Below are positions 21,556 through 53,957 of a stretch of DNA of 64,000 nucleotides, one piece after another. The translations under genes and the position numbers were made by a program. A model generated the notes under the pieces. The model saw only the letters and a list, made by a program, of their open reading frames with translations. It ran no database searches and was not told the DNA's origin. Position 1 is the first letter of the stretch; every line of letters begins with the position of its first letter. The DNA comes from an uncultured Lentisphaeria bacterium (GTDB lineage: Bacteria > Fidelibacterota > UBA8477 > JABMPR01): the NCBI GenBank assembly GCA_964578155.1, contig CAZOBQ010000001.1:66670-130669 (forward strand). The letters are read 5' to 3'.

Positions 21556-21948
21556 ATGGGTTTGATGCAAAATCTTAAGTCAAAGACTATAGTCTCTTTA
21601 TTAATATTTCTCACTCTAATACCTCAAGGCTATGCACAGCCTAACATGACAGCAAAAGCTAAGATTGATGTTGCTAAGGATGTGAATAAAATATATTGGT
21701 TTGGCGCGGGACTTATTTCTGGAGGGATCGGTGTCTTTTTTGCATCGACAATGGCTCCTGAACCAATAAATGAGCGTGATATAGAGACAACGGTAACAAG
21801 AGAGGTCAATGAGTACTATACAGGCTATCGGGAAGAGGGTAAAAGAATTCAAACCTCTCAGGCTATAAAGGGGGCGATTATTAACCTGACAGTCCTGACG
21901 ATTATCTATTATAAGAATGTTGTAGACAGGCCAGAGTTTAAATATTGA
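21556..21948 (+). CDS. Hypothetical signal-peptide/glycine-zipper protein (paralogue of the next gene)
   Basis: Signal peptide, then AKAKIDVAKDV...YWFGAGLISGGIGVF, then EYYTGYREEGKR. The next ORF has the same layout. Confidence 0.4.
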   Translation: MGLMQNLKSKTIVSLLIFLTLIPQGYAQPNMTAKAKIDVAKDVNKIYWFGAGLISGGIGVFFASTMAPEPINERDIETTVTREVNEYYTGYREEGKRIQTSQAIKGAIINLTVLTIIYYKNVVDRPEFKY

Positions 21949-21996
21949 TACCGACATATTGGTCGCACAAACACATCATAATAAGGGGAAAACAGA

Positions 21997-22404
21997 ATGG
22001 AAAGCAAAAGCAGAAGCGCAAAGTTGATGACAGGATTATTGTGTATCGCACTACTATTACCATCGACCATCACATTTGGACAAGAAACTGTACGAGATTA
22101 CTACATGGAAGGAAAATTTGCAGCGAAAGCTGACTATTCTGGTGGAGGAGCCGTAGTTGGAGGCCTGGTAAGTGGCTTTGCATTAGGGCTGATTGGCTGG
22201 GGTCTTGGCTATCTAATCGTAGCTAATTCCGATTCAAAAGTTCCTTCTCATTACACTGCAAACATGGACGCAACTCAAAAGATGCAATTTGAGACCGGCT
22301 ACTCCGAATATGTTATGAAAACCAAAAAGAGTAAATTCAATATGGGTGGCGGAATTGGAACCTTAGGAGCTGTAATTTATACCGTTAGTGTCACCTCAGA
22401 GTAG
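21997..22404 (+). CDS. Hypothetical signal-peptide/glycine-zipper protein (paralogue of the previous gene)
   Basis: Signal peptide, then FAAKADYSGGGAVVGGLVSGFALGLIGWGLGY, then FETGYSEYVMKTKK. Confidence 0.4.
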   Translation: MESKSRSAKLMTGLLCIALLLPSTITFGQETVRDYYMEGKFAAKADYSGGGAVVGGLVSGFALGLIGWGLGYLIVANSDSKVPSHYTANMDATQKMQFETGYSEYVMKTKKSKFNMGGGIGTLGAVIYTVSVTSE

Positions 22405-22562
22405 AACATCCTTCAAAAGTGGGTGGGGACTGCTGTTCTTTATAGTCGTCTCCATTCGCTTGTGGTCATATATCCCCAAGAGTATATTCAGCCTTGGCTT
22501 TCTTGAGCCCTTTTTACTCTAATCCAACAATTGATAACCTTTAGGGAAGCGAGGGATAAATA

Positions 22563-22952
22563 TTGAATAACTGGATCTTTTTAATGGTTATAATCGCCTC
22601 CATGATCCTTGTCATCGGTGGTTTTGCTGTCAATCTGGCCAAAAAGCAACGAGAACTTCGGAAGTTACATCCTGGCTACCCTGAGGGATACTTTCAAGGC
22701 AGGGGGATGGGTGTTGGCATTGCTATTGGCGCAAGTCTTGGTTTGGCTATGGATAACATTGCGATTGGTGTCGGGGTTGGCGTCGCCATTGGGGCTGCCA
22801 TTGGGACCGCCAACGAAAAGAAACATATAGACGAGATCAGACCGCTCACCAAGGAGGAGAGACAGCTCAAAAAACAGAAGATCATGTTTCTTGCTGCCAC
22901 CTTTATGCTTGGTTTGCTTGTGTTTGTGATCGCTTATTTGATAAACAGGTAG
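22563..22952 (+). CDS. Membrane protein with central glycine zipper
   Basis: N- and C-terminal TM helices flank GMGVGIAIGASLGLAMDNIAIGVGVGVAIGAAIG. The start is uncertain (TTG 22563 or ATG 22584). Confidence 0.4.
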   Translation: MNNWIFLMVIIASMILVIGGFAVNLAKKQRELRKLHPGYPEGYFQGRGMGVGIAIGASLGLAMDNIAIGVGVGVAIGAAIGTANEKKHIDEIRPLTKEERQLKKQKIMFLAATFMLGLLVFVIAYLINR

Positions 22953-37191: not shown

Positions 37192-37821
37192 GTGAGAGTC
37201 TTCGCCTGTATGGCCAGCACCCTGGATGGAAAGATTGGACCCGCCAATGTGGAGCAGTTTGTTTCTATCGGTTCCAGGTATGACCTTGACCATTTAAAAT
37301 CTCTACGTGATACCGCCGATGGGGTTCTATTCGGCGCCAGCACCTTCCGGGCTTGGCCAAAAGTTCACCATGGACATAAGGCAGACCACCAACTGCATCA
37401 TTTTATTTTGAGCCATAGTCTTGATCTTGATCCAAACGCTGACCTATTTCAACGCACTGACATTCCCGTGAGCATCTTCACCGGGGCCAAACCAAGTTTG
37501 TTTTTAAAAGAATTTCCAGCCCAGGTTAAATTCATACATCTTAACAATCAAAAAAGCACCATTGTCCAGACTGTAGATCATATCAAACAACAAGGCGTTA
37601 CCAACCTCCTGGTGGAGGGCGGCGGTCAAGTGCTTCAACAACTGATTGAGGCTCAAATCCTACAAGAGCTTTTTCTTACCGTAACACCCAAAGTTATGGG
37701 TCAAGTTGATGCTCCAAACCTTTTTGGCAACATGTCCACCATCAAACCCCCGGTTTTTAAAACCATAGACAGTAAAATTGTCGGTGATGAGGTGTACTTC
37801 CACTTTTTGCTTCAGTATTGA
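37192..37821 (+). CDS. RibD C-terminal-domain/dihydrofolate-reductase-like reductase
   Basis: VFACMASTLDGKIG and LLVEGGGQVLQQLI...ELFLTVTPKVMG. GGAGG lies 7 nt upstream of the GTG at 37192, so I prefer that start over the ORF-track ATG at 37129. Confidence 0.6.
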   Translation: MRVFACMASTLDGKIGPANVEQFVSIGSRYDLDHLKSLRDTADGVLFGASTFRAWPKVHHGHKADHQLHHFILSHSLDLDPNADLFQRTDIPVSIFTGAKPSLFLKEFPAQVKFIHLNNQKSTIVQTVDHIKQQGVTNLLVEGGGQVLQQLIEAQILQELFLTVTPKVMGQVDAPNLFGNMSTIKPPVFKTIDSKIVGDEVYFHFLLQY

Positions 37822-37993: not shown

Positions 37994-40285
37994 ATGAAAA
38001 ATATTGTTACCAGTTTACTATTTGCCCTGATTTTGGTGGGTGGCGTTTATGCCGAAAAGGTTGCCATTGTCTCCAAGGTTCAAGGGGAGGTCCTTCTACA
38101 GAAGGCTGATGAATTAGCGTATAATAATCCTGTAACCGTGGGTACCATTCTCGAGAACAATGACCAGATCAAAGTCAATGATGGTTTTGCCGTCATGTTG
38201 CTTCTTGATGATAAAAGCCAGGTCAAGTTGAGAGAAAATACAGAGGTGGCCGTCTCCATGGTTGATGACCTTAGCGGCTCAGGATACCATGTTCGCCTGG
38301 ATTACGGCCAAGCGCTTACAAAATATTCAAAGGGGGCAGGCTTTGATTTTCAACTTCACACACCAACCTCAGTGGCTTCTATTAAAGGGACCGAGTTCTG
38401 GACTCTTTCCGATCCTGACAATGGAGACCAGGTGATTGTTCTAGAAGGTGTCGTGGATGTTATGAACAACTTAACAGGCATGATCAGCACAGCTGGTGCC
38501 GGTCAAACGGTTAACTCTAGTAGCGATGGTTACATTGAAACTGGAGCTACAGAAGAGGGTACAATTCCAGAAGATCCGGAAGACCTCGGGGCAGCTGAAC
38601 CCGAAGGTGAAACCGAAGAAGAGATTGTTGCGGATTCAACAAGCGTTGAAGAAGAACTTGCAAGCGATGATGGCGTCATAGAAGATGATCAAGCGATGAC
38701 CAGTGCTCCGGCACCTCCACCATCAACTACTGGAACAACCACACCAGAACCTGAGGGTGAAGAGGCAGCCGAAGAAGGTGGCGGCTTGTTCGGAGATGCC
38801 TTGGCAATGGATGGTGCACTTGGAGCTGTAACAATTGATGGACAACTATATAACCAAATTGCCTTACGCCCTGATATTTCAATTGGCAAGCTTGGTATCG
38901 GTCTTGATATCGTTATCTATATGGATCAAGATGGAAACATGCGAGATGAAGAGTGGAATGAAGCTAAAGATATCGTCGACAAAATTATGTATGTTCGCTG
39001 GGGCGAACAAGGCGATCCTTTCTTTGTTCGGGTCGGAACGCTAGAAAATGTTGTTTTAGGTTATGGTCTATTTATGAATGGCTATTCAAATATGATGGAA
39101 TATCCCTCTGTTCGTAAAACAGGTCATCATATTGGGTTTAAGGTTGGTAACTTTGGTATAGAAAACGTTATTGCTAACTATAAAGAGTTTTCTTTTGGTG
39201 GCGAAAGCAACGGCCTGGGTCTCTTAGGTTTACGCGGGACCTTTTCATTGGGCAAGTTGGCTTTTGGAGCAACCGTTGTTGCTGATAATAATCAGTACCT
39301 TGGCTTAAAAGATGAAGATGGTGATTATATACCGGACCTTGTAGATGCTTTTCCTGATGATGCGGATGCATCCATTGATACAGATGGCGATGGACGTGCT
39401 GACAACTCGCCGGACGAATGGGATATCGATGGTGATGGAAAGACAGATAATTACACGCCTGACCCATCAAGAAACTGGGATGACTTTATAACCAGAGATC
39501 CTGCACCTTTTGACATAAGTGAGAATCCTAGCACTGTCGGTGGTGTAAGTTTTGATGTTGCCTATCCAATCTTGTCAATGGACAAATTCAAATTAGTTCT
39601 TTTTGCAGAAGCAGGTCAGTATTTTGGTACTGCAGACTCAATGTACTATTTTGATGAAAACGATAACTTAGCACAAAAGAAGATAGAATATGGTTTTGGG
39701 GCCACTGCTCCAGGTTTACGTGCTCAGATTTTTAGTTTTCTTACCGCCAGTCTTGAGTTTCGTATAACACCGACAGGAAATTTTGTTTATGGTCTATTCG
39801 ACAAAAACTACGATCTCGAACGTGTCGGTTTTGTTGATTATGGCGGAAGTCTTGGCTTAACACCAAGAACTCGATATGAAAAACTATATGACAACTCCTC
39901 AATGATGGGTCTGTTTGGTAGCATTGGCGCCAATATCCTAAATGTGGTCAATATCCAGGCTGGTTATCAACATATGACCTCTGATAGTTCTGAAGTAAAG
40001 GGCATTCAGGGCGTTATTGGTCTGGCACCTGGTCTAATTCCGAAGGTTGAGGCGGCAAATGCATATATCTTGCGGATGAATGTCGATGATCCTTTTGAGA
40101 TTGTTAGCGAAGGAACTCTTCTGGGTTACCAGGTCACTATCGGTCTTGGTGGTGGCGCAACCCTCACATGGGACTTCCGCCAGAGCTATATCGACATCAA
40201 CGGTGATGGAACAATTGATACCGAAAATCCTGATTCTGGTGAGGTTGTGGCTCAGACAAGTATCGAAACTGGTTTCTCGTTCTAA
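37994..40285 (+). CDS. Secreted FecR-domain protein with acidic linker, TSP3-like Ca-binding repeats and a large C-terminal beta-rich domain
   Basis: Signal peptide. FecR-like N-domain (VSKVQGEVLLQKAD...NDQIKVNDGFAVMLL). E/D/P/T-rich linker. DTDGDGRADNSPDEWDIDGDGKTDN. The C-terminus ends in an aromatic residue (GFSF). Confidence 0.55.
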   Translation: MKNIVTSLLFALILVGGVYAEKVAIVSKVQGEVLLQKADELAYNNPVTVGTILENNDQIKVNDGFAVMLLLDDKSQVKLRENTEVAVSMVDDLSGSGYHVRLDYGQALTKYSKGAGFDFQLHTPTSVASIKGTEFWTLSDPDNGDQVIVLEGVVDVMNNLTGMISTAGAGQTVNSSSDGYIETGATEEGTIPEDPEDLGAAEPEGETEEEIVADSTSVEEELASDDGVIEDDQAMTSAPAPPPSTTGTTTPEPEGEEAAEEGGGLFGDALAMDGALGAVTIDGQLYNQIALRPDISIGKLGIGLDIVIYMDQDGNMRDEEWNEAKDIVDKIMYVRWGEQGDPFFVRVGTLENVVLGYGLFMNGYSNMMEYPSVRKTGHHIGFKVGNFGIENVIANYKEFSFGGESNGLGLLGLRGTFSLGKLAFGATVVADNNQYLGLKDEDGDYIPDLVDAFPDDADASIDTDGDGRADNSPDEWDIDGDGKTDNYTPDPSRNWDDFITRDPAPFDISENPSTVGGVSFDVAYPILSMDKFKLVLFAEAGQYFGTADSMYYFDENDNLAQKKIEYGFGATAPGLRAQIFSFLTASLEFRITPTGNFVYGLFDKNYDLERVGFVDYGGSLGLTPRTRYEKLYDNSSMMGLFGSIGANILNVVNIQAGYQHMTSDSSEVKGIQGVIGLAPGLIPKVEAANAYILRMNVDDPFEIVSEGTLLGYQVTIGLGGGATLTWDFRQSYIDINGDGTIDTENPDSGEVVAQTSIETGFSF

Positions 40286-40310
40286 AAAGGTTCAAGAGCA
40301 ATAATAAAAA

Positions 40311-40338
40311 ACGCCCTGCGATTGCGGGGCGTTTTTTT
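40311..40338. terminator. Bidirectional intrinsic terminator between convergent genes
   Basis: aaaaaACGCCCTGCgattGCGGGGCGTttttttt has a GC-rich stem (one G-U pair), with an A-run upstream and a T-run downstream. Confidence 0.75.
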
Positions 40339-40383: not shown

Positions 40384-41439
40384 TTAATCTGTCCCCAGGA
40401 ATTTAGCCTTTTGTTCTTTGTAGTAGGGATCATCTGGCTGTAAGGCAATACACTCACCCATTACTGCGACAGCTTCATCGATTCTATCAAGTTTCCAGAG
40501 AACCTCACCCTTGGTGTCCAAGATTTGGGCTTTGTCACGAGGAGTGTCCTCTTCCGTGAAAAGGGCTGTGGCCTGATTTATTCGCTCAAGTGCGTTTTCT
40601 AGGTTCAGCTCTAGTTGAGTCATTCTCCAGGCATAACCATTCAACAAACCTGACGTTTCTTGCTGGGTACCAGACATGAAATCAACAAAGCGACGATATG
40701 TCTCTGCTTCTGCAGCTTTATCTTTTGCCCGACGATGAAAATTACGTAAAGCGTTATATGCCTCAGGAAGAATCTCAGTGTTGGTTTCATTGTTTATAAA
40801 TGAGACCAGTGTCTCAGGGTTATTGTTTTCCTGGGAATGAAATAGGGCCATCTTCAAGCCAGCCATGGAGCGAGTACCGGCTTCTATGTCCTGCATTCCA
40901 AATAAAATCTCCCAATAGCTCATGGCGGCCTTTAGTCCACTCATGGCTTCAGTTTTTTCTGCGAGAGTCATCAACAGGGCAGCATTTTCAGGGTCTGCCT
41001 CAAGGCGACTTAAGAGGTCGGGAACCGTGTTAATTCCATTGCGGATACGGGTCATTTCAGCCAGATATTCATCTGGTGGTAAAAAGCCAAGAATGCGGTC
41101 GATCTCAAAACCCTCTTCATCTACAAAAACAAAGGTCGGTATCGCGCGAATGTTGAACTGCTCCCTCAACTCCTTTCCTTCAGTGGAATCTGAGTTAGCA
41201 CGATAAGAAATAAAATTCTCAGAGGCATATGCTATGAGTGCAGGGTCAATAAATGTTTCGGCGTCCAGCCGATTACAGGAGCCTCACCATTTGGCGGAAA
41301 CTTCGTAACCAACTATTTTACCGTTAGCCTCCATCTTGGTATCCAGGTCAGAAATCCAGGGGTATGTTGGTTCCTTTTCAGCGCAACCAATAATGAAGAG
41401 TCCTAAGGTTACAGCAATTAAAAAATTCTTTATGCGCAT
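40384..41439 (-). CDS. Thioredoxin-fold + TPR lipoprotein with an in-frame TGA at the CxxC position (candidate selenoprotein, W-U-G-S-C)
   Basis: ATG at 41439 follows AAGGA. Signal peptide and lipobox MRIKNFLIAVTLGLFIIGC. Then ...VSAKW-TGA(41286..41284)-GSCNRLDAETF...IRAIPTFVFVDEEG (thioredoxin-fold pattern), then TPR-like repeats. The ORF-track start at 41169 is an internal TTG in the same frame. Confidence 0.6.
41255..41276 (-). promoter_or_regulatory. Candidate bacterial SECIS hairpin
   Basis: The mRNA after UGA reads GGCUCCU-GUAAUCGGC-UGGAC-GCCGAAAC. The upper stem UCGGC/GCCGA begins 11 nt after UGA, the apical loop UGGAC contains GG, and the lower pairs are GU/AC. Confidence 0.45.
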
Positions 41440-41769
41440 TTCTATCCTTTCAACGATATCTATCTATTTTAGTCTTATGAAACTATAGATTATAACACGG
41501 GTGTGCAACTGTTCTGTTAATCATGGTTCTGGATCTTGTCATTGATAATTATTAACCTGCCAAACTGCTGTTAAAATATTTAAGGCTGTATAACCATGAC
41601 CTGTGTGAAAATGCTAACCATTGTTTCTAATTAGTTTGCTGCTGGTGTTGTTACCAAAAGACCCTTAGTTCACCGTGTAGAATCTGACTGATTTATAAGA
41701 TGGTTTTTAATAAATACCTCTCTACATTCCGTGACTAATTAATGATTAACAACAGAAGGAGGTTCCAGC

Positions 41770-44700
41770 ATGAAGAAGATGAACGCATCTTTGGAGAGAG
41801 TGTTCATGAGGGTGTTTATTGTTTCAATCGTTTTAACCGGGCTGGTGTACAGTCAGGGTGTTACAACAGCAGGAGTAAATGGGAAAATAACTGATGCTGA
41901 TGGAAATGTCTTGGTTGGTGCAAATGTCATCGCCAAACATCTCCCTACGGGAAGGGTTTACGGTGCCTCAACCATGACGGACGGATATTATTATATCCCC
42001 AACATGAAAATTGGTGGCCCATATGTATTAACCGTGAGCTATATCGGATATTCAGAGCAAAAAGCTGAAGATGTCTTCCTCGCGCTAAACGTTGAAAAGA
42101 CTCAAAACTTCACGCTGCAAGTTGAAGCCATGGAAATGGGTTCAGTGGTTGTTACAGCTGAACACAGTGAGATCAATGCGAACAGGACTGGATCAAAAAC
42201 CAGTATTAATTCAGAGCAAATTGCTACTCTACCTACTATCTCCAGAGGCACAAAAGATTTTACCCGTATGACACCTGAAAGTGATGGGAATTCATTTGGT
42301 GGTCGTAATAATCTTTACAATAACTTTTCTCTGGATGGCTCTATTTTTAACAATCCTTTTGGTTTGGATTATGCTGTTCCCGGTGGCCAAACAGATGCAC
42401 AACCTGTATCGCTGGATGCTATTGAACAAGTACAAGTCTCAATCGCTCCTTTTGATGTTCGTGAAGGTGGATTCACCGGTGCTGGTGTAAATGCTGTGAC
42501 CAAATCCGGAACCAATGAATTCCAGGCCTCAGTCTATCACTACCTGAGAAATGAATCGATGGTGGGAACCAAGGTGGGTGATGCAGATGTTGAGAACCTT
42601 GATTTCTCAACCAATCAAAGTGGTATTTCTCTAGGTGGTCCAATTATCAAAGACAAGCTGTTCTATTTTGTCAATATTGAAGCTGAACGTCGTGACCAGC
42701 TTGCCCACAGTTTTATTGCTGATGATGGATCAACAGGTGCAAACGTTACATCTGTTTCTGCAGATTCAATTGCATTGGTTCAGGCTCGTCTCCGTGAGTA
42801 CTGGGGTTATGAACCTGGTGAATATCAGGGTTACAACCATGAGACTTTTAACAACAAGCTCTTGGCCAAGATTGACTGGAATATCAATGAGTCACACAAC
42901 TTGACATTCCGCTACAACTATCTGGATTCATGGAAAGATATCCTGCCTCACCCAGAAGCTATTATTGGTCGCGGTCCTACCAGCTATAGACTTCCTTTTG
43001 AAAACTCTTCTTATAGAATCTTCAATAAGATTAACTCCTATGTGGCAGAACTTCATTCTCGTTTCTCTAACAAACTTGCTAACAAACTATTGGTTGGCTA
43101 TACCATGTTCAGAGATGAAAGAGAGCCTAAGTCAGTTGGTTGGCCTGTGGTTGATATTTTTGACGGAAGTGGAAATCTAGCAATCTCCATGGGTTCAGAA
43201 ATGTTCTCTACACACAATAGGCTCTATCAGGATGTTTTTCAGTTTACTGACAACCTGACTTACTATATGGATAAACACACGCTAACAGCCGGTGTTAACC
43301 TTGAGGTGTTGCAGTTTGACAACTCATTTAACCTGTTCTATTATCCCTGGTATTTCAGGACTTCTTGAATAATGATGATACTGGAATTGATTTCAATGCT
43401 GCTGCAGCTACCGCTGAAGCAAATGACTATGCTTGGGCTTATGTGGATGTTGGTCAGCTTGGTGTCTACGCACAAGATCAATTCAGGGCTTCTGATAACC
43501 TGAAAATCACCGCTGGTCTTCGGGTTGATTTTCCTCTCTATCTCAATGAGATCGAAGAAGATACTGCAATCACTAATTTTGATGGTTGGGTAGATGAGAA
43601 CGGTGATCCTGCCACAGTTAATCCTGCCGAATGGCCCTCAGGGAAACCTCTGTTTGCTCCACGGCTTGGATTCAATTGGGATGTTTATGGCGATAAAACC
43701 ATGCAGGTTCGAGGTGGCTCCGGAATCTTTACCGGTCGCATTCCTTTTGTATGGTTAGGCAACCAGGCTTCCAATGCCAAGCTCTATCCATGGTATACTT
43801 TTCAGATCAACACGACGGCTGATGATTTCAATTATCCTCAAGTATGGAAAAATGATATCGCCGTTGATAAAGCTTTTGGTGATGGTTGGTTAGCATCTTT
43901 AGAAGCAATTTACTCTAAAGACCTGAATGCCGTGGTCCATCGTAACTACAACATGTTACCACCTTCTGCCGCTTTGTCAGGAACAGGTGATACCAGACCA
44001 ATGTTCGCTGGTTTTAATGAGGTCAACATTTACTCAGCTGCTGGCGTATCCAATACATTCCTGGATGCTGGCGCTATAGTGTTGGATAACACAGATGAAG
44101 GACACCAGACCTCGTTTACTGGAAAGCTTGCCAAAGAATTTGACTTTGGATTGTTGGCTAATGTTTCATACACCAACATCACCTCAAAGGACTTGACTTC
44201 AATTCCAGCTGAAATTGCTGCTGATGCCTTTCAGAGAAATGCTATCGTAGATGGCCCTAATAGTGCCATTTTCTCACATTCTCGTTATGGTCTTAAGCAC
44301 AGAGTTATTTCCTCGGCTACCTATTCTAAGAGTTATGGAAACATGAACTCCAGCGTGGCGCTGTTCTTTGAAACAGGCGTTGGTAATCGTTATTCCTTTA
44401 CTTATGCCGGAGATCTCAATGGAGATGCCATTGCGAATAACGACTTGCTCTATGTTCCCTCAGATGCCAGCGATATCCATTTTGGAACCGTTGATGCGAA
44501 CGGGGTTGGAACAGTAGCCGCAGATGCTGCAGCTCAATGGGCAGCCTTGGACGCCTTTATCGAGCAGGATGACTATCTGAGCACACGTCGTGGCGATTAT
44601 GCCGAACGTAATAGCGCTATGTTGCCTTGGTTCTCTCAGTTAGATCTTAAATTCATTCAAGACCTAAGTCTGAATGTGGCTGGTAGTGATCATAACATTC

Positions 44701-44918
44701 AGCTTTCACTTGATGTTATGAATCTTGGCAATATGATCAGCTCCGCCTGGGGTGTCCGTCAATTGTCAACCACTTGGAATCCAATTACCGTTAATGGTGT
44801 TGATGCGAACAACGTACCTTATTTCAGTTTCAATACTGACTTAACGGATTCTTATGTCGACGATACATCAATTCTCTCTAAATGGCAGATGCAGTTTGGA
44901 GTACACTACAAATTCTAA
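41770..44918 (+). pseudogene. TonB-dependent receptor (CarboxypepD_reg N-domain + plug + barrel) split by a frameshift near 43351..43356
   Basis: ORF1 (41770..43368) and ORF2 (43365..44918) are the N- and C-halves of one receptor. The ORF2 frame is open from 43332. A -1 shift at tgg-tat-ttc-agg gives ...YYPWYFQDFLNNDDTG. The C-terminus ends in the barrel motif FGVHYKF. Confidence 0.75.
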
Positions 44919-53024: not shown

Positions 53025-53243
53025 GATTTATCCCTTTTTTTTGGGTGTTACATGTTTTTGTTTTTATGTGGGTTTTCTACGTTTTTGGTCACTGCAACTG
53101 CAGTTATTACCCCCACGTTTTTTACACCAAACATGATACATTTTATCCAAAACCATGACAAGCAGTTTATCCTGCCTGAAACACAAAATAATGCCTAGAA
53201 AGCTGTTATTGACAAATGTTTCTCTGTTTAGGCAAGGCGCCTC

Positions 53244-53656
53244 TTAAAGGCTGTTGTCGGCGTAATACCCCATAGCTTCAGCCATAAATACAGCCTGGCC
53301 TGGCTTGATCTTTTCGTAATAATCAGTGAACTCAGGATTTTGGATATGGAGCTGCCCAAGCCCACTATACATTTCTGCCGGGCAGGTATAGAAGTTCTCA
53401 ATCCAGAGATGGTGTTCCTTTATCCAGTCTTGAACCTCTGATGCTTGTACGCCCTAATTCATCAGTTCAGAAATTACCCGCGTGACATCATCGCCTTTTT
53501 TTTGACATCCTGGAATTTATCTTTGCTCATGTTCTTCAGGTTGCGTCTGGATTTGGAAACCTTCTCACGGTCATATTTTTCATCGATTTCTTTATTCCAG
53601 CGATCGATCATTTCTTGGTCAAACCCTTTATACAAACCTTTGTCTTTGAGTGCCAT
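53244..53656 (-). pseudogene. TipAS-like (antibiotic-recognition domain) gene remnant with a frameshift and a TAG
   Basis: The 60-aa ORF (MALKDKGLYKGFDQEMIDRWNKE...) continues only after a 1-nt frame change at the A8 run (53496..53503): ...KKGDDVTRVISELMN-TAG(53456..53454)-GVQASEVQDWIKEHHLWIENFY...YSGLGQLH..NPEFTDYYEK..PGQAVFMAEAMGYYA. Confidence 0.5.
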
Positions 53657-53683
53657 ATTATGCCCCCCCTGTTCTATCTCGAA

Positions 53684-53932
53684 TCAAGCTTTTATGCTGG
53701 ATAAATGTGTTTTTATTCCATTAAGCGCGATGAGTGCCCAAAAGAAATTGAGAATAAAGGGGCCGTAAACCGTAAAATAGAAGGTGTTTACACAAATCAA
53801 CGATGCGCCACTCAGGTTTGCCAACTGATAGGCCATGTTGTGTGTGGTCCATTTTTTGGTAGAGTTATTGAAATACGCCAAGAGAAGTAGGGCTGCCCCT
53901 AAAATTCCAACGACCTGCATTAAGATATCCAT
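53684..53932 (-). CDS. Small 3-TM membrane protein
   Basis: MDILMQVVGILGAALLLLAYF...YQLANLSGASL...FFWALIALNG. The start at 53932 avoids overlap with the permease gene. Confidence 0.35.
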   Translation of the reverse strand: MDILMQVVGILGAALLLLAYFNNSTKKWTTHNMAYQLANLSGASLICVNTFYFTVYGPFILNFFWALIALNGIKTHLSSIKA

Positions 53933-53957
53933 GCTTCCCTTTTCCCTTCTTTTCTGA

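Follow-up and report, generated by a model that had tools for sequence, protein, structure and literature searches.

The question raised by this locus is whether a TGA triplet inside an otherwise open reading frame ends translation or is read as selenocysteine (Sec). The locus lies in a metagenomic stretch of 64,000 nucleotides (contig CAZOBQ010000001.1 of assembly GCA_964578155.1, positions 66,670 to 130,669 of the forward strand), deposited as an uncultured Lentisphaeria bacterium and placed in Fidelibacterota in the GTDB lineage; the whole stretch is referred to below as the window. On its minus strand, ATG 41439..41437 is followed by 51 sense codons, by TGA 41286..41284 as codon 52, and by 299 sense codons up to TAA 40386..40384. 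Read directly from the sequence, this frame gives a single gene of 351 codons (41439..40384, Sec52 included) with TGA as its sole in-frame stop. A mechanical listing of open reading frames (ORFs) reports instead a 51-aa ORF (41284..41439) and a 261-aa ORF that begins at TTG 41169, 38 sense codons after the TGA. The translation reads MRIKNFLIAVTLGLFIIGC...GKIVGYEVSAKW-TGA-GSCNRLDAETF, and in the context SAKW-TGA-GSC the TGA stands where a thioredoxin CxxC motif has its first Cys (W-U-G-S-C). A preliminary description of this DNA had proposed a UxxC thioredoxin-TPR lipoprotein with a hairpin resembling a selenocysteine insertion sequence (SECIS). Every statement it made about the frame, from the ATG at 41439 with AAGGA ahead of it to the internal TTG, was correct, and its interpretation is supported by the comparative evidence given here. 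We put the probability that TGA 41286..41284 is recoded to Sec, and that this is a genuine Sec-encoding gene, at about 0.92.

The first line of evidence comes from the homologues. Ninety-three related loci were fetched as DNA and each was read in the frame of its match; a single-protein scan of GTDB genomes gave two of the related loci. The set carrying the motif comprised 85 sequences (84 loci and the window), 72 of them distinct, with identities to the window protein from 70% down to 32%. The motif column was TGA in 76/85 sequences and TGT or TGC in 9/85 (63 and nine, respectively, among the distinct sequences), and the surroundings varied among KW-U-GSC, EW-U-SWC, DG-U-SWC, TW-U-GGC and DW-U-TWC. 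Besides TGA, the homologues had Cys at this column and never Trp or Gly, so the alignment that the preliminary description had suggested as a check came out with Cys or TGA in 85/85 sequences. We also carried out a wider search of 1.84 billion cluster representatives (50%-identity clusters) and examined the best 148 clusters, which comprised about 71 full-length CxxC forms, 57 N-terminally truncated calls and six calls with a mistaken W. Since CxxC forms stand there beside truncated and W calls, the family follows the classic Sec/Cys pattern. One Sec-form orthologue, 59% identical, was found on a 626-kb contig (CAYVVT010000001.1) whose record is also labelled "uncultured Lentisphaeria bacterium"; either the family reaches beyond Marinimicrobia or the genome bin is mislabelled.

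The reconstructed protein, used as the query against a protein database, yielded 71 relatives. The named ones were assigned to Marinimicrobia, Neomarinimicrobiota or Fidelibacterota (SAR406), bar one distant Prevotella match (P0071, 369 aa, 29% identity over 30% of the query), which is a full-length Cys form with DWCGPC. As many as 69/71 are annotated without the N-terminus; they are 202-305 aa long, and many begin right after the motif (MRLDAETF..., MDAETF...). Some public calls show W at the codon (P0002, P0102, P0104 and P0110), as might be expected if UGA were read through as something other than Sec, by genetic code table 4 or 25, by a near-cognate Trp or Cys tRNA or by a route independent of SelA and SelB, with the hairpin acting as a stimulator of read-through. 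The W calls come from code-4 gene calling. For P0002, whose protein record has W where its DNA has TGA, the miscall can be recognized because it also runs past the TGA at which the gene truly ends, gaining 17 residues without counterpart in the versions of the window and of locus L001. Trp at the Sec column was likewise noticed in P0149, P0095, P0179 and P0202, evidently also through code 4. In general TGA does not act as a sense codon: 8/51 window ORFs of at least 150 aa end with it, and it is the true stop of the orthologue in locus L003 (381-1478). The sites 37819..37821 and 21946..21948, named in the preliminary description as genuine TGA stops, are both present.

The window comes from a metagenome assembly and contains at least one frameshifted gene, so the possibility had to be considered that TGT or TGC was misread as TGA during sequencing or assembly. 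Five JGI contigs, independently assembled and of different sample origin, carry the window allele with its TGA unchanged, and JGI contigs with the gene reach 543 kb. The triplet recurs among the orthologues in 63 distinct sequences. To the extent that assemblies can settle the matter, the codon is TGA throughout; the five contigs rule out an assembly error, and we regard a misread Cys codon as a negligible prospect.

The second line of evidence concerns translation upstream of the TGA. Codon-position differences were computed among the 18 closest sequences over 26 codons on each side. Averaged over pairs, they were 0.19, 0.13 and 0.52 (positions 1, 2 and 3) before the TGA, and 0.13, 0.11 and 0.36, a similar pattern, after it. 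No in-frame stop was found in the 26 codons upstream of the TGA in any of 71 sequences. The 5' part had been described as carrying a lipoprotein signal, and this is borne out by MRIKNFLIAVTLGLFIIGC with its IIGC and by a lipobox-like motif in 46/61 homologues that have a complete N-terminus. The signal peptide with its lipobox-type Cys is conserved as IIGC in the window and as LLGC, ILAC, LFSC and similar in the relatives; the window N-terminus, ...GLFIIGC19, agrees with the pattern [LVI][ASTVI][GAS]C, which is a pattern match from which lipidation is predicted. Coding conservation thus runs in frame through the TGA, and the upstream part appears to be translated. A start downstream of the TGA, which the preliminary description had named as fatal to its proposal, is contradicted by the upstream coding periodicity, by the conserved signal peptide and also by the structure model described below, which needs the upstream beta strand.

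These results bear on the simplest alternative, that TGA is a real stop and the locus is a decaying pseudogene, or encodes a 51-residue lipopeptide and a separate TPR protein from an internal TTG or ATG. Gene callers do split the locus in public records, into the 51-aa and 261-aa ORFs, or list truncated products of 232-305 aa. A truly broken outer-membrane protein (OMP) gene, frameshifted at ~43350-43365, lies nearby in the window, and two orthologues are damaged (L006 by a 1-nt deletion, L025 by a 5' truncation). Against this, 63 distinct sequences, with identities as low as 32%, each keep exactly one stop, always at the same column, and purifying selection acts on both halves in a shared frame, which would not be so in a pseudogene. 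The Cys-form homologues, moreover, are continuous proteins. A split would separate strand 1 of the thioredoxin fold from the helix that carries the active site, and the called downstream starts vary among records and fall inside the domain. We consider a functional stop here very improbable.

The two damaged copies can be described more closely. In L006:40-60 (ENA ERZ27316756, k141_116028) the sequence is TGG-TA-GGC where other copies have TGG-TGA-GGC, with one nucleotide of the Sec codon deleted and the frame shifted; on this short contig the deletion could be an error or a dead allele. In L025:9600-10060 (FLOH01000027.1, a 602-kb contig) the 5' part is lost, homology starts from TTAGCCGAAACG, just after the hairpin loop, and the DNA upstream is unrelated. 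This copy is probably a rearrangement remnant, since the signal peptide and the Sec codon are gone.

The third line of evidence is the RNA hairpin that follows the UGA. The sequence UCGGC-UGGAC-GCCGA begins 11 nt after the UGA and its loop begins 16 nt after it. Both the sequence and the position given in the preliminary description were confirmed, also by an independent pattern scan, which recovered the hairpin with five pairs (four of them G-C) and a loop of five nucleotides. The family form is CGGC-UGGAY-GCCG. We aligned 59 distinct Sec-form segments, from TGA to +45 nt and without gaps, and unguided RNAalifold gave one helix, pairing columns 16-19 with 25-28. The four core pairs were formed in 235/236 cells of this alignment. 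Compensatory changes were found at two pairs (GC to UA in five sequences, GC to AU in three), with G-U intermediates present. None of 500 shuffles reached the observed covariation score or percentage paired, and when the partner columns were slid, pairing was found in only 18-61% of cells. The distant Cys-form lineages are without the helix (0 to -2.4 kcal/mol in five of the nine Cys forms), while in two Cys forms, L036 and L040, the hairpin is intact. The latter are probably recent Sec-to-Cys conversions, because they closely resemble Sec-form sequences. Set beside L026-L028, L061, L062, L079 and L080, these two make up a small natural time series of SECIS decay after replacement of Sec by Cys.

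We compared the hairpin with the published bacterial SECIS consensus (PMC13188914, Fig. 2 legend). The consensus has an apical loop of 3-9 nt, an upper stem of 4-16 bp, a required G in the first two loop positions, 16-37 nt between UGA and loop, and a minimum free energy of at most -7.5 kcal/mol. The hairpin has a 5-nt loop (UGGAC, with G at positions 2-3), a stem of 4-5 bp, a spacing of 16 nt and, as a 19-nt hairpin, an energy of -7.5 kcal/mol. It qualifies as a bacterial SECIS by this consensus, at the permissive edge, and together with the covariation this agrees with the position and shape that had been claimed for it. Predictions add a lower stem, one that takes in the UGA, for the closest subgroup only, and Rfam gave no family match on the window, hairpin included. 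The pattern scan also flagged the hairpin as terminator-like. A role as terminator or attenuator was rejected, given the in-frame coding, the weak U tail and the loss of the helix specifically in Cys forms.

Several observations weigh against the selenocysteine reading. The hairpin stem encodes a conserved R-L-D-A-D/E peptide, and its nucleotide conservation is therefore partly derived from the protein. For this reason we tested synonymous sites: the Leu codon in the loop is CTG in 63/63 Sec forms, compared with 23% of Leu codons in the same genes, and the Arg codon in the stem is CGG in 53/57, compared with a background of 24%. Some compensatory variants even alter the protein to keep the helix, e.g. 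Ala to Val (GUC) paired with CGA. The stem (4-5 bp), the spacing (16 nt) and the energy (-7.5 kcal/mol) all stand at the lower limit of the SECIS model, and the fold energy of the hairpin region in the single sequence is not unusual compared with shuffled sequences (z = -0.85), so the support for the hairpin is comparative rather than thermodynamic. Neither selA, selB, selD nor tRNA-Sec was found in the window or in the 854 kb made up of the window and related loci. ARAGORN detected no tRNA in the window and six ordinary tRNAs, none of them tRNA-Sec, in all loci, and a tblastn search of the window and 86 loci for E. coli SelA, SelB and SelD had no match at E <1e-3. A 2016 survey of 5,200 genomes reported three SAR406 single-cell genomes with an "orphan" SelD, that is, with no other Sec components or known selenoprotein genes, these genomes being partial (PMC5029168). 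Finally, the function proposed below is drawn from fold similarity.

The question of the Sec machinery bears on the read-through explanation introduced above for the W calls, since SAR406 single-cell genomes have been reported with SelD only (PMC5029168) and the Sec genes were not found in the window or related loci. This has to be set against the TGA stops of the 8/51 large window ORFs and the homologues with only Cys at the column, never Trp or Gly. Furthermore, the column is the catalytic nucleophile of the CxxC motif, where only Sec can replace Cys, and the hairpin fits a SelB-type SECIS consensus. Insertion of an amino acid other than Sec, or by such a SelA/SelB-independent route, is in our view very unlikely. 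If the lack of SelA and SelB in SAR406 were real, UGA would be decoded without canonical SelA, SelB and tRNA-Sec. This also seems very improbable; if true, a phylum that ranks among the most abundant of the deep ocean would have a new mechanism of recoding.

Coming back to the protein with Sec at codon 52, we examined its domains and fold. With C substituted for U, Pfam Thioredoxin_2 (PF13098) matches residues 38-127 (E 3.6e-10, 40.6 bits against a gathering cut-off of 27), so the domain spans the TGA. The Pfam TPR matches at the C-terminus are weak (E 8e-4 to 9e-3, all under the gathering score). In a PDB sequence search, residues 35-127 matched 2kuc (E 2.3e-11) and DsbD-gamma (E ~1e-7). The W-U-G-S-C of the window protein aligns on W-C-G-P-C in both, with the Sec column on the first Cys; the stop codon thus stands where the preliminary description had placed it, in a W-C-G-x-C layout in place of the redox-active Cys.

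The AlphaFold model that we used is that of the homologue P0002 (69% identity to the window protein, with W at the Sec position) and not of the window protein itself. It has a predicted local distance difference test score (pLDDT) of 87 and a predicted template modelling score of 0.79. In this model a strand at 42-48 precedes the Sec position (residue 52), which lies at the N-terminus of helix 53-62, and a full thioredoxin fold extends to residue 133 and is followed by 11 helices (pLDDT >90). Two features of the thioredoxin fold are present: in the model the motif opens helix 1 right behind strand 1, and the sequence has the cis-Pro motif A-I-P-T-F. A Foldseek search with the whole P0002 chain gave E. 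coli YbbN/CnoX (3qou) as the best match (E 6e-6, 321 aligned columns). The thioredoxin domain matched DsbD-gamma with a template modelling (TM) score of 0.62-0.69, a root-mean-square deviation of 1.8-2.6 A and 27-30% identity, and the helical domain matched TPR superhelices.

No curated selenoprotein model of NCBIfam claims the protein. The best match was selenoprotein TsoB (NF045694), with 53 bits against a cut-off of 805 and only the DsbD-like C-terminal domain matched, and DsbD (NF001419) scored 34.5 bits against a cut-off of 330, with only the DsbD-gamma-like domain matched. The UGSC-containing selenoprotein family NF041046 was absent among the NCBIfam matches even at E up to 1. Membership in it was considered on account of the shared U-G-S-C tetrapeptide and was rejected as coincidental, as there is no model match and other subfamilies have USWC, UGGC or UTWC. 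Neither Pfam nor NCBIfam gave a match to a YbbN-type family at the sequence level. Judging from fold and motif, the product is most likely a thiol-disulfide oxidoreductase of the periplasm, anchored to lipid, with a TPR-like domain for the binding of clients or partners.

The mechanism that we propose builds on the observed reading frame, Sec/Cys column, conserved covarying hairpin and fold. UGA codon 52 would be recoded to Sec during translation of a single 351-residue product, and, by analogy with the established bacterial mechanism, the short mRNA hairpin that closely follows the UGA (loop at 16 nt) would direct this recoding. The protein would be exported and anchored to lipid via Cys19 of the lipobox signal peptide. 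The Sec52 selenolate may then attack a disulfide or sulfenate of the substrate, after which Cys55 would resolve the selenenyl-sulfide intermediate. The TPR-like domain (~210 residues) may hold a client or partner, as in the cytoplasmic thioredoxin-TPR protein YbbN/CnoX. Here we infer the dependence on SelB, the actual insertion of selenium, the cellular location and the substrates.

The YbbN protein of E. coli is cytoplasmic and has SxxC rather than CxxC. This "chaperedoxin" (YbbN/CnoX, PDB 3qou) and the window protein are alike in domain order, with the thioredoxin fold at the N-terminus and a helical domain of the TPR type after it. The superposition of 3qou with the P0002 model is poor (TM 0.19-0.24, 15% identity), and the match is therefore one of architecture and not of demonstrated common descent. 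Unlike YbbN, the window protein has a lipoprotein export signal, and its thioredoxin domain is nearer to DsbD-gamma. The best matches of that domain are DsbD-gamma itself (PDB 1vrs, 2fwe-2fwh, 1uc7) and the Bacteroides "putative disulphide-isomerase" 2kuc, whose CxxC aligns to the UxxC. DsbD-gamma is periplasmic, as the window protein is predicted to be; unlike DsbD, the latter has neither the membrane domain nor the alpha domain, carries Sec for Cys and has an additional TPR-like domain. The hairpin resembles the SECIS of the E. coli fdhF/fdnG type and the bSECISearch consensus: it is part of the coding sequence shortly after the UGA, its small apical loop carries G-G, and its UGA-to-loop spacing falls within 16-37 nt. 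In contrast to the fdhF/fdnG type, it is very short (a conserved core of 4-5 bp), with the minimum allowed spacing and energy.

Thioredoxin-fold proteins with UxxC are the commonest kind of bacterial selenoprotein, and the prokaryotic selenoprotein catalogue is dominated by thioredoxin-fold UxxC and CxxU proteins. It includes a PF13098 UxxC family named "Thiol:disulfide interchange protein", represented by WP_011366075.1, and mentions no TPR-containing, lipoprotein or Marinimicrobia form (PMC13188914, PMC9312934). That family and the window protein share PF13098, a UxxC with N-terminal Sec, a downstream SECIS within the coding sequence and Cys-form homologues, a likeness drawn by Pfam domain, motif and description. 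The view that the gene belongs to an uncatalogued, widespread and misannotated selenoprotein family with a thioredoxin-TPR lipoprotein architecture is well supported; it is not a new principle. The features of the gene and its flanks are collected in Table 1.

Table 1. Features of the putative selenoprotein gene and its flanks, in window coordinates.
Feature	Position	Strand	Basis or remark
Putative selenoprotein coding sequence, complete	40384..41439	-	Reading frame; tblastn matches of related loci cover query residues 1-350 across the TGA
Shine-Dalgarno-like AAGGA	41445..41449	-	5 nt upstream of ATG 41439; putative function
Lipoprotein signal peptide MRIKNFLIAVTLGLFIIGC	41383..41439	-	Lipobox I-I-G-C; codon of predicted lipidated Cys19 at 41385..41383
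UGA codon 52, proposed Sec, nucleophilic position of U-G-S-C	41284..41286	-	Homologue column; 2kuc/DsbD-gamma alignment; five assemblies
TGT codon 55, resolving Cys of UxxC	41275..41277	-	TG of the codon (alignment columns 10-11) invariant
SECIS-like hairpin UCGGC-UGGAC-GCCGA	41258..41272	-	Loop 41267..41263; within codons Asn56-Glu61
Thioredoxin-fold domain, residues 38-127, DsbD-gamma-like, cis-Pro motif AIPTF	41059..41328	-	Pfam PF13098, PDB matches, homologue model
C-terminal all-helical TPR-like domain, residues ~139-351	40387..41025	-	Weak Pfam TPR, homologue model, Foldseek
Intrinsic terminator hairpin with A-run and U-run flanks	40306..40337	-	-18.4 kcal/mol, z = -4.58

The terminator hairpin listed last is common to the selenoprotein gene and a convergent FecR-domain gene (37994..40285), and none of 200 shuffles folded as well. 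Since it is flanked by an A-run and a U-run, it is probably bidirectional; an internal mismatch kept it from being picked up by a simple terminator scan. The gene order (FecR-domain gene convergent, CarboxypepD_reg/OMP-barrel gene divergent) is kept only in relatives of 60-70% identity and gives no firm functional clue. The divergent neighbour (41770..44918, plus strand) encodes a CarboxypepD_reg domain and an outer-membrane beta-barrel resembling a TonB-dependent receptor, and is split into ORFs of 532 and 517 aa. Its intact orthologues (L001, L008, L010 and L017) read ...FYYPWNTFGSVQAFLNNDETGIDF... at the place of the window junction. The window is 13 nt shorter than these orthologues across the junction, hence the change of frame, and the split gene is either a pseudogene or an assembly error.

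We also scanned the window for other ORF pairs parted only by TGA, and a UxxC context was found only in the 40384..41439 gene. A search over the 854 kb for a hairpin of the family type after a TGA likewise found only the selenoprotein thioredoxin-TPR family. One further pair, parted by TGA 53684..53686, was rejected as a selenoprotein candidate since it did not look coding. Within 53025..53957 (~0.9 kb) all ORFs are shorter than 150 aa, and Rfam gave no match there. Elsewhere in the window, three consecutive ORFs of ~130 aa lie on the plus strand at 21556..22952 (21556..21948, 21997..22404 and 22563..22952), each encoding a small protein with a hydrophobic N-terminus and hydrophobic segments rich in glycine, for example GGGAVVGGLVSG and GVGIAIGASLG.

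The finding does not overturn current understanding. Its immediate consequence is that essentially all public records of the family are wrong, being split, truncated without signal peptide and active site, or translated with code 4, and that this misannotation affects the protein catalogues of a globally abundant marine phylum. The family also offers a clean example of a minimal SECIS laid over a conserved peptide, with compensatory changes and with decay after conversion of Sec to Cys. For the organisms themselves, the finding implies that Marinimicrobia decode Sec, which would give the "orphan" SelD of SAR406 (PMC5029168) a purpose. The lipid-anchored, exported thioredoxin-TPR layout would be a new selenoprotein architecture, and it suggests that bacteria of the low-oxygen ocean carry out, in their cell envelope, thiol-disulfide chemistry that depends on selenium.

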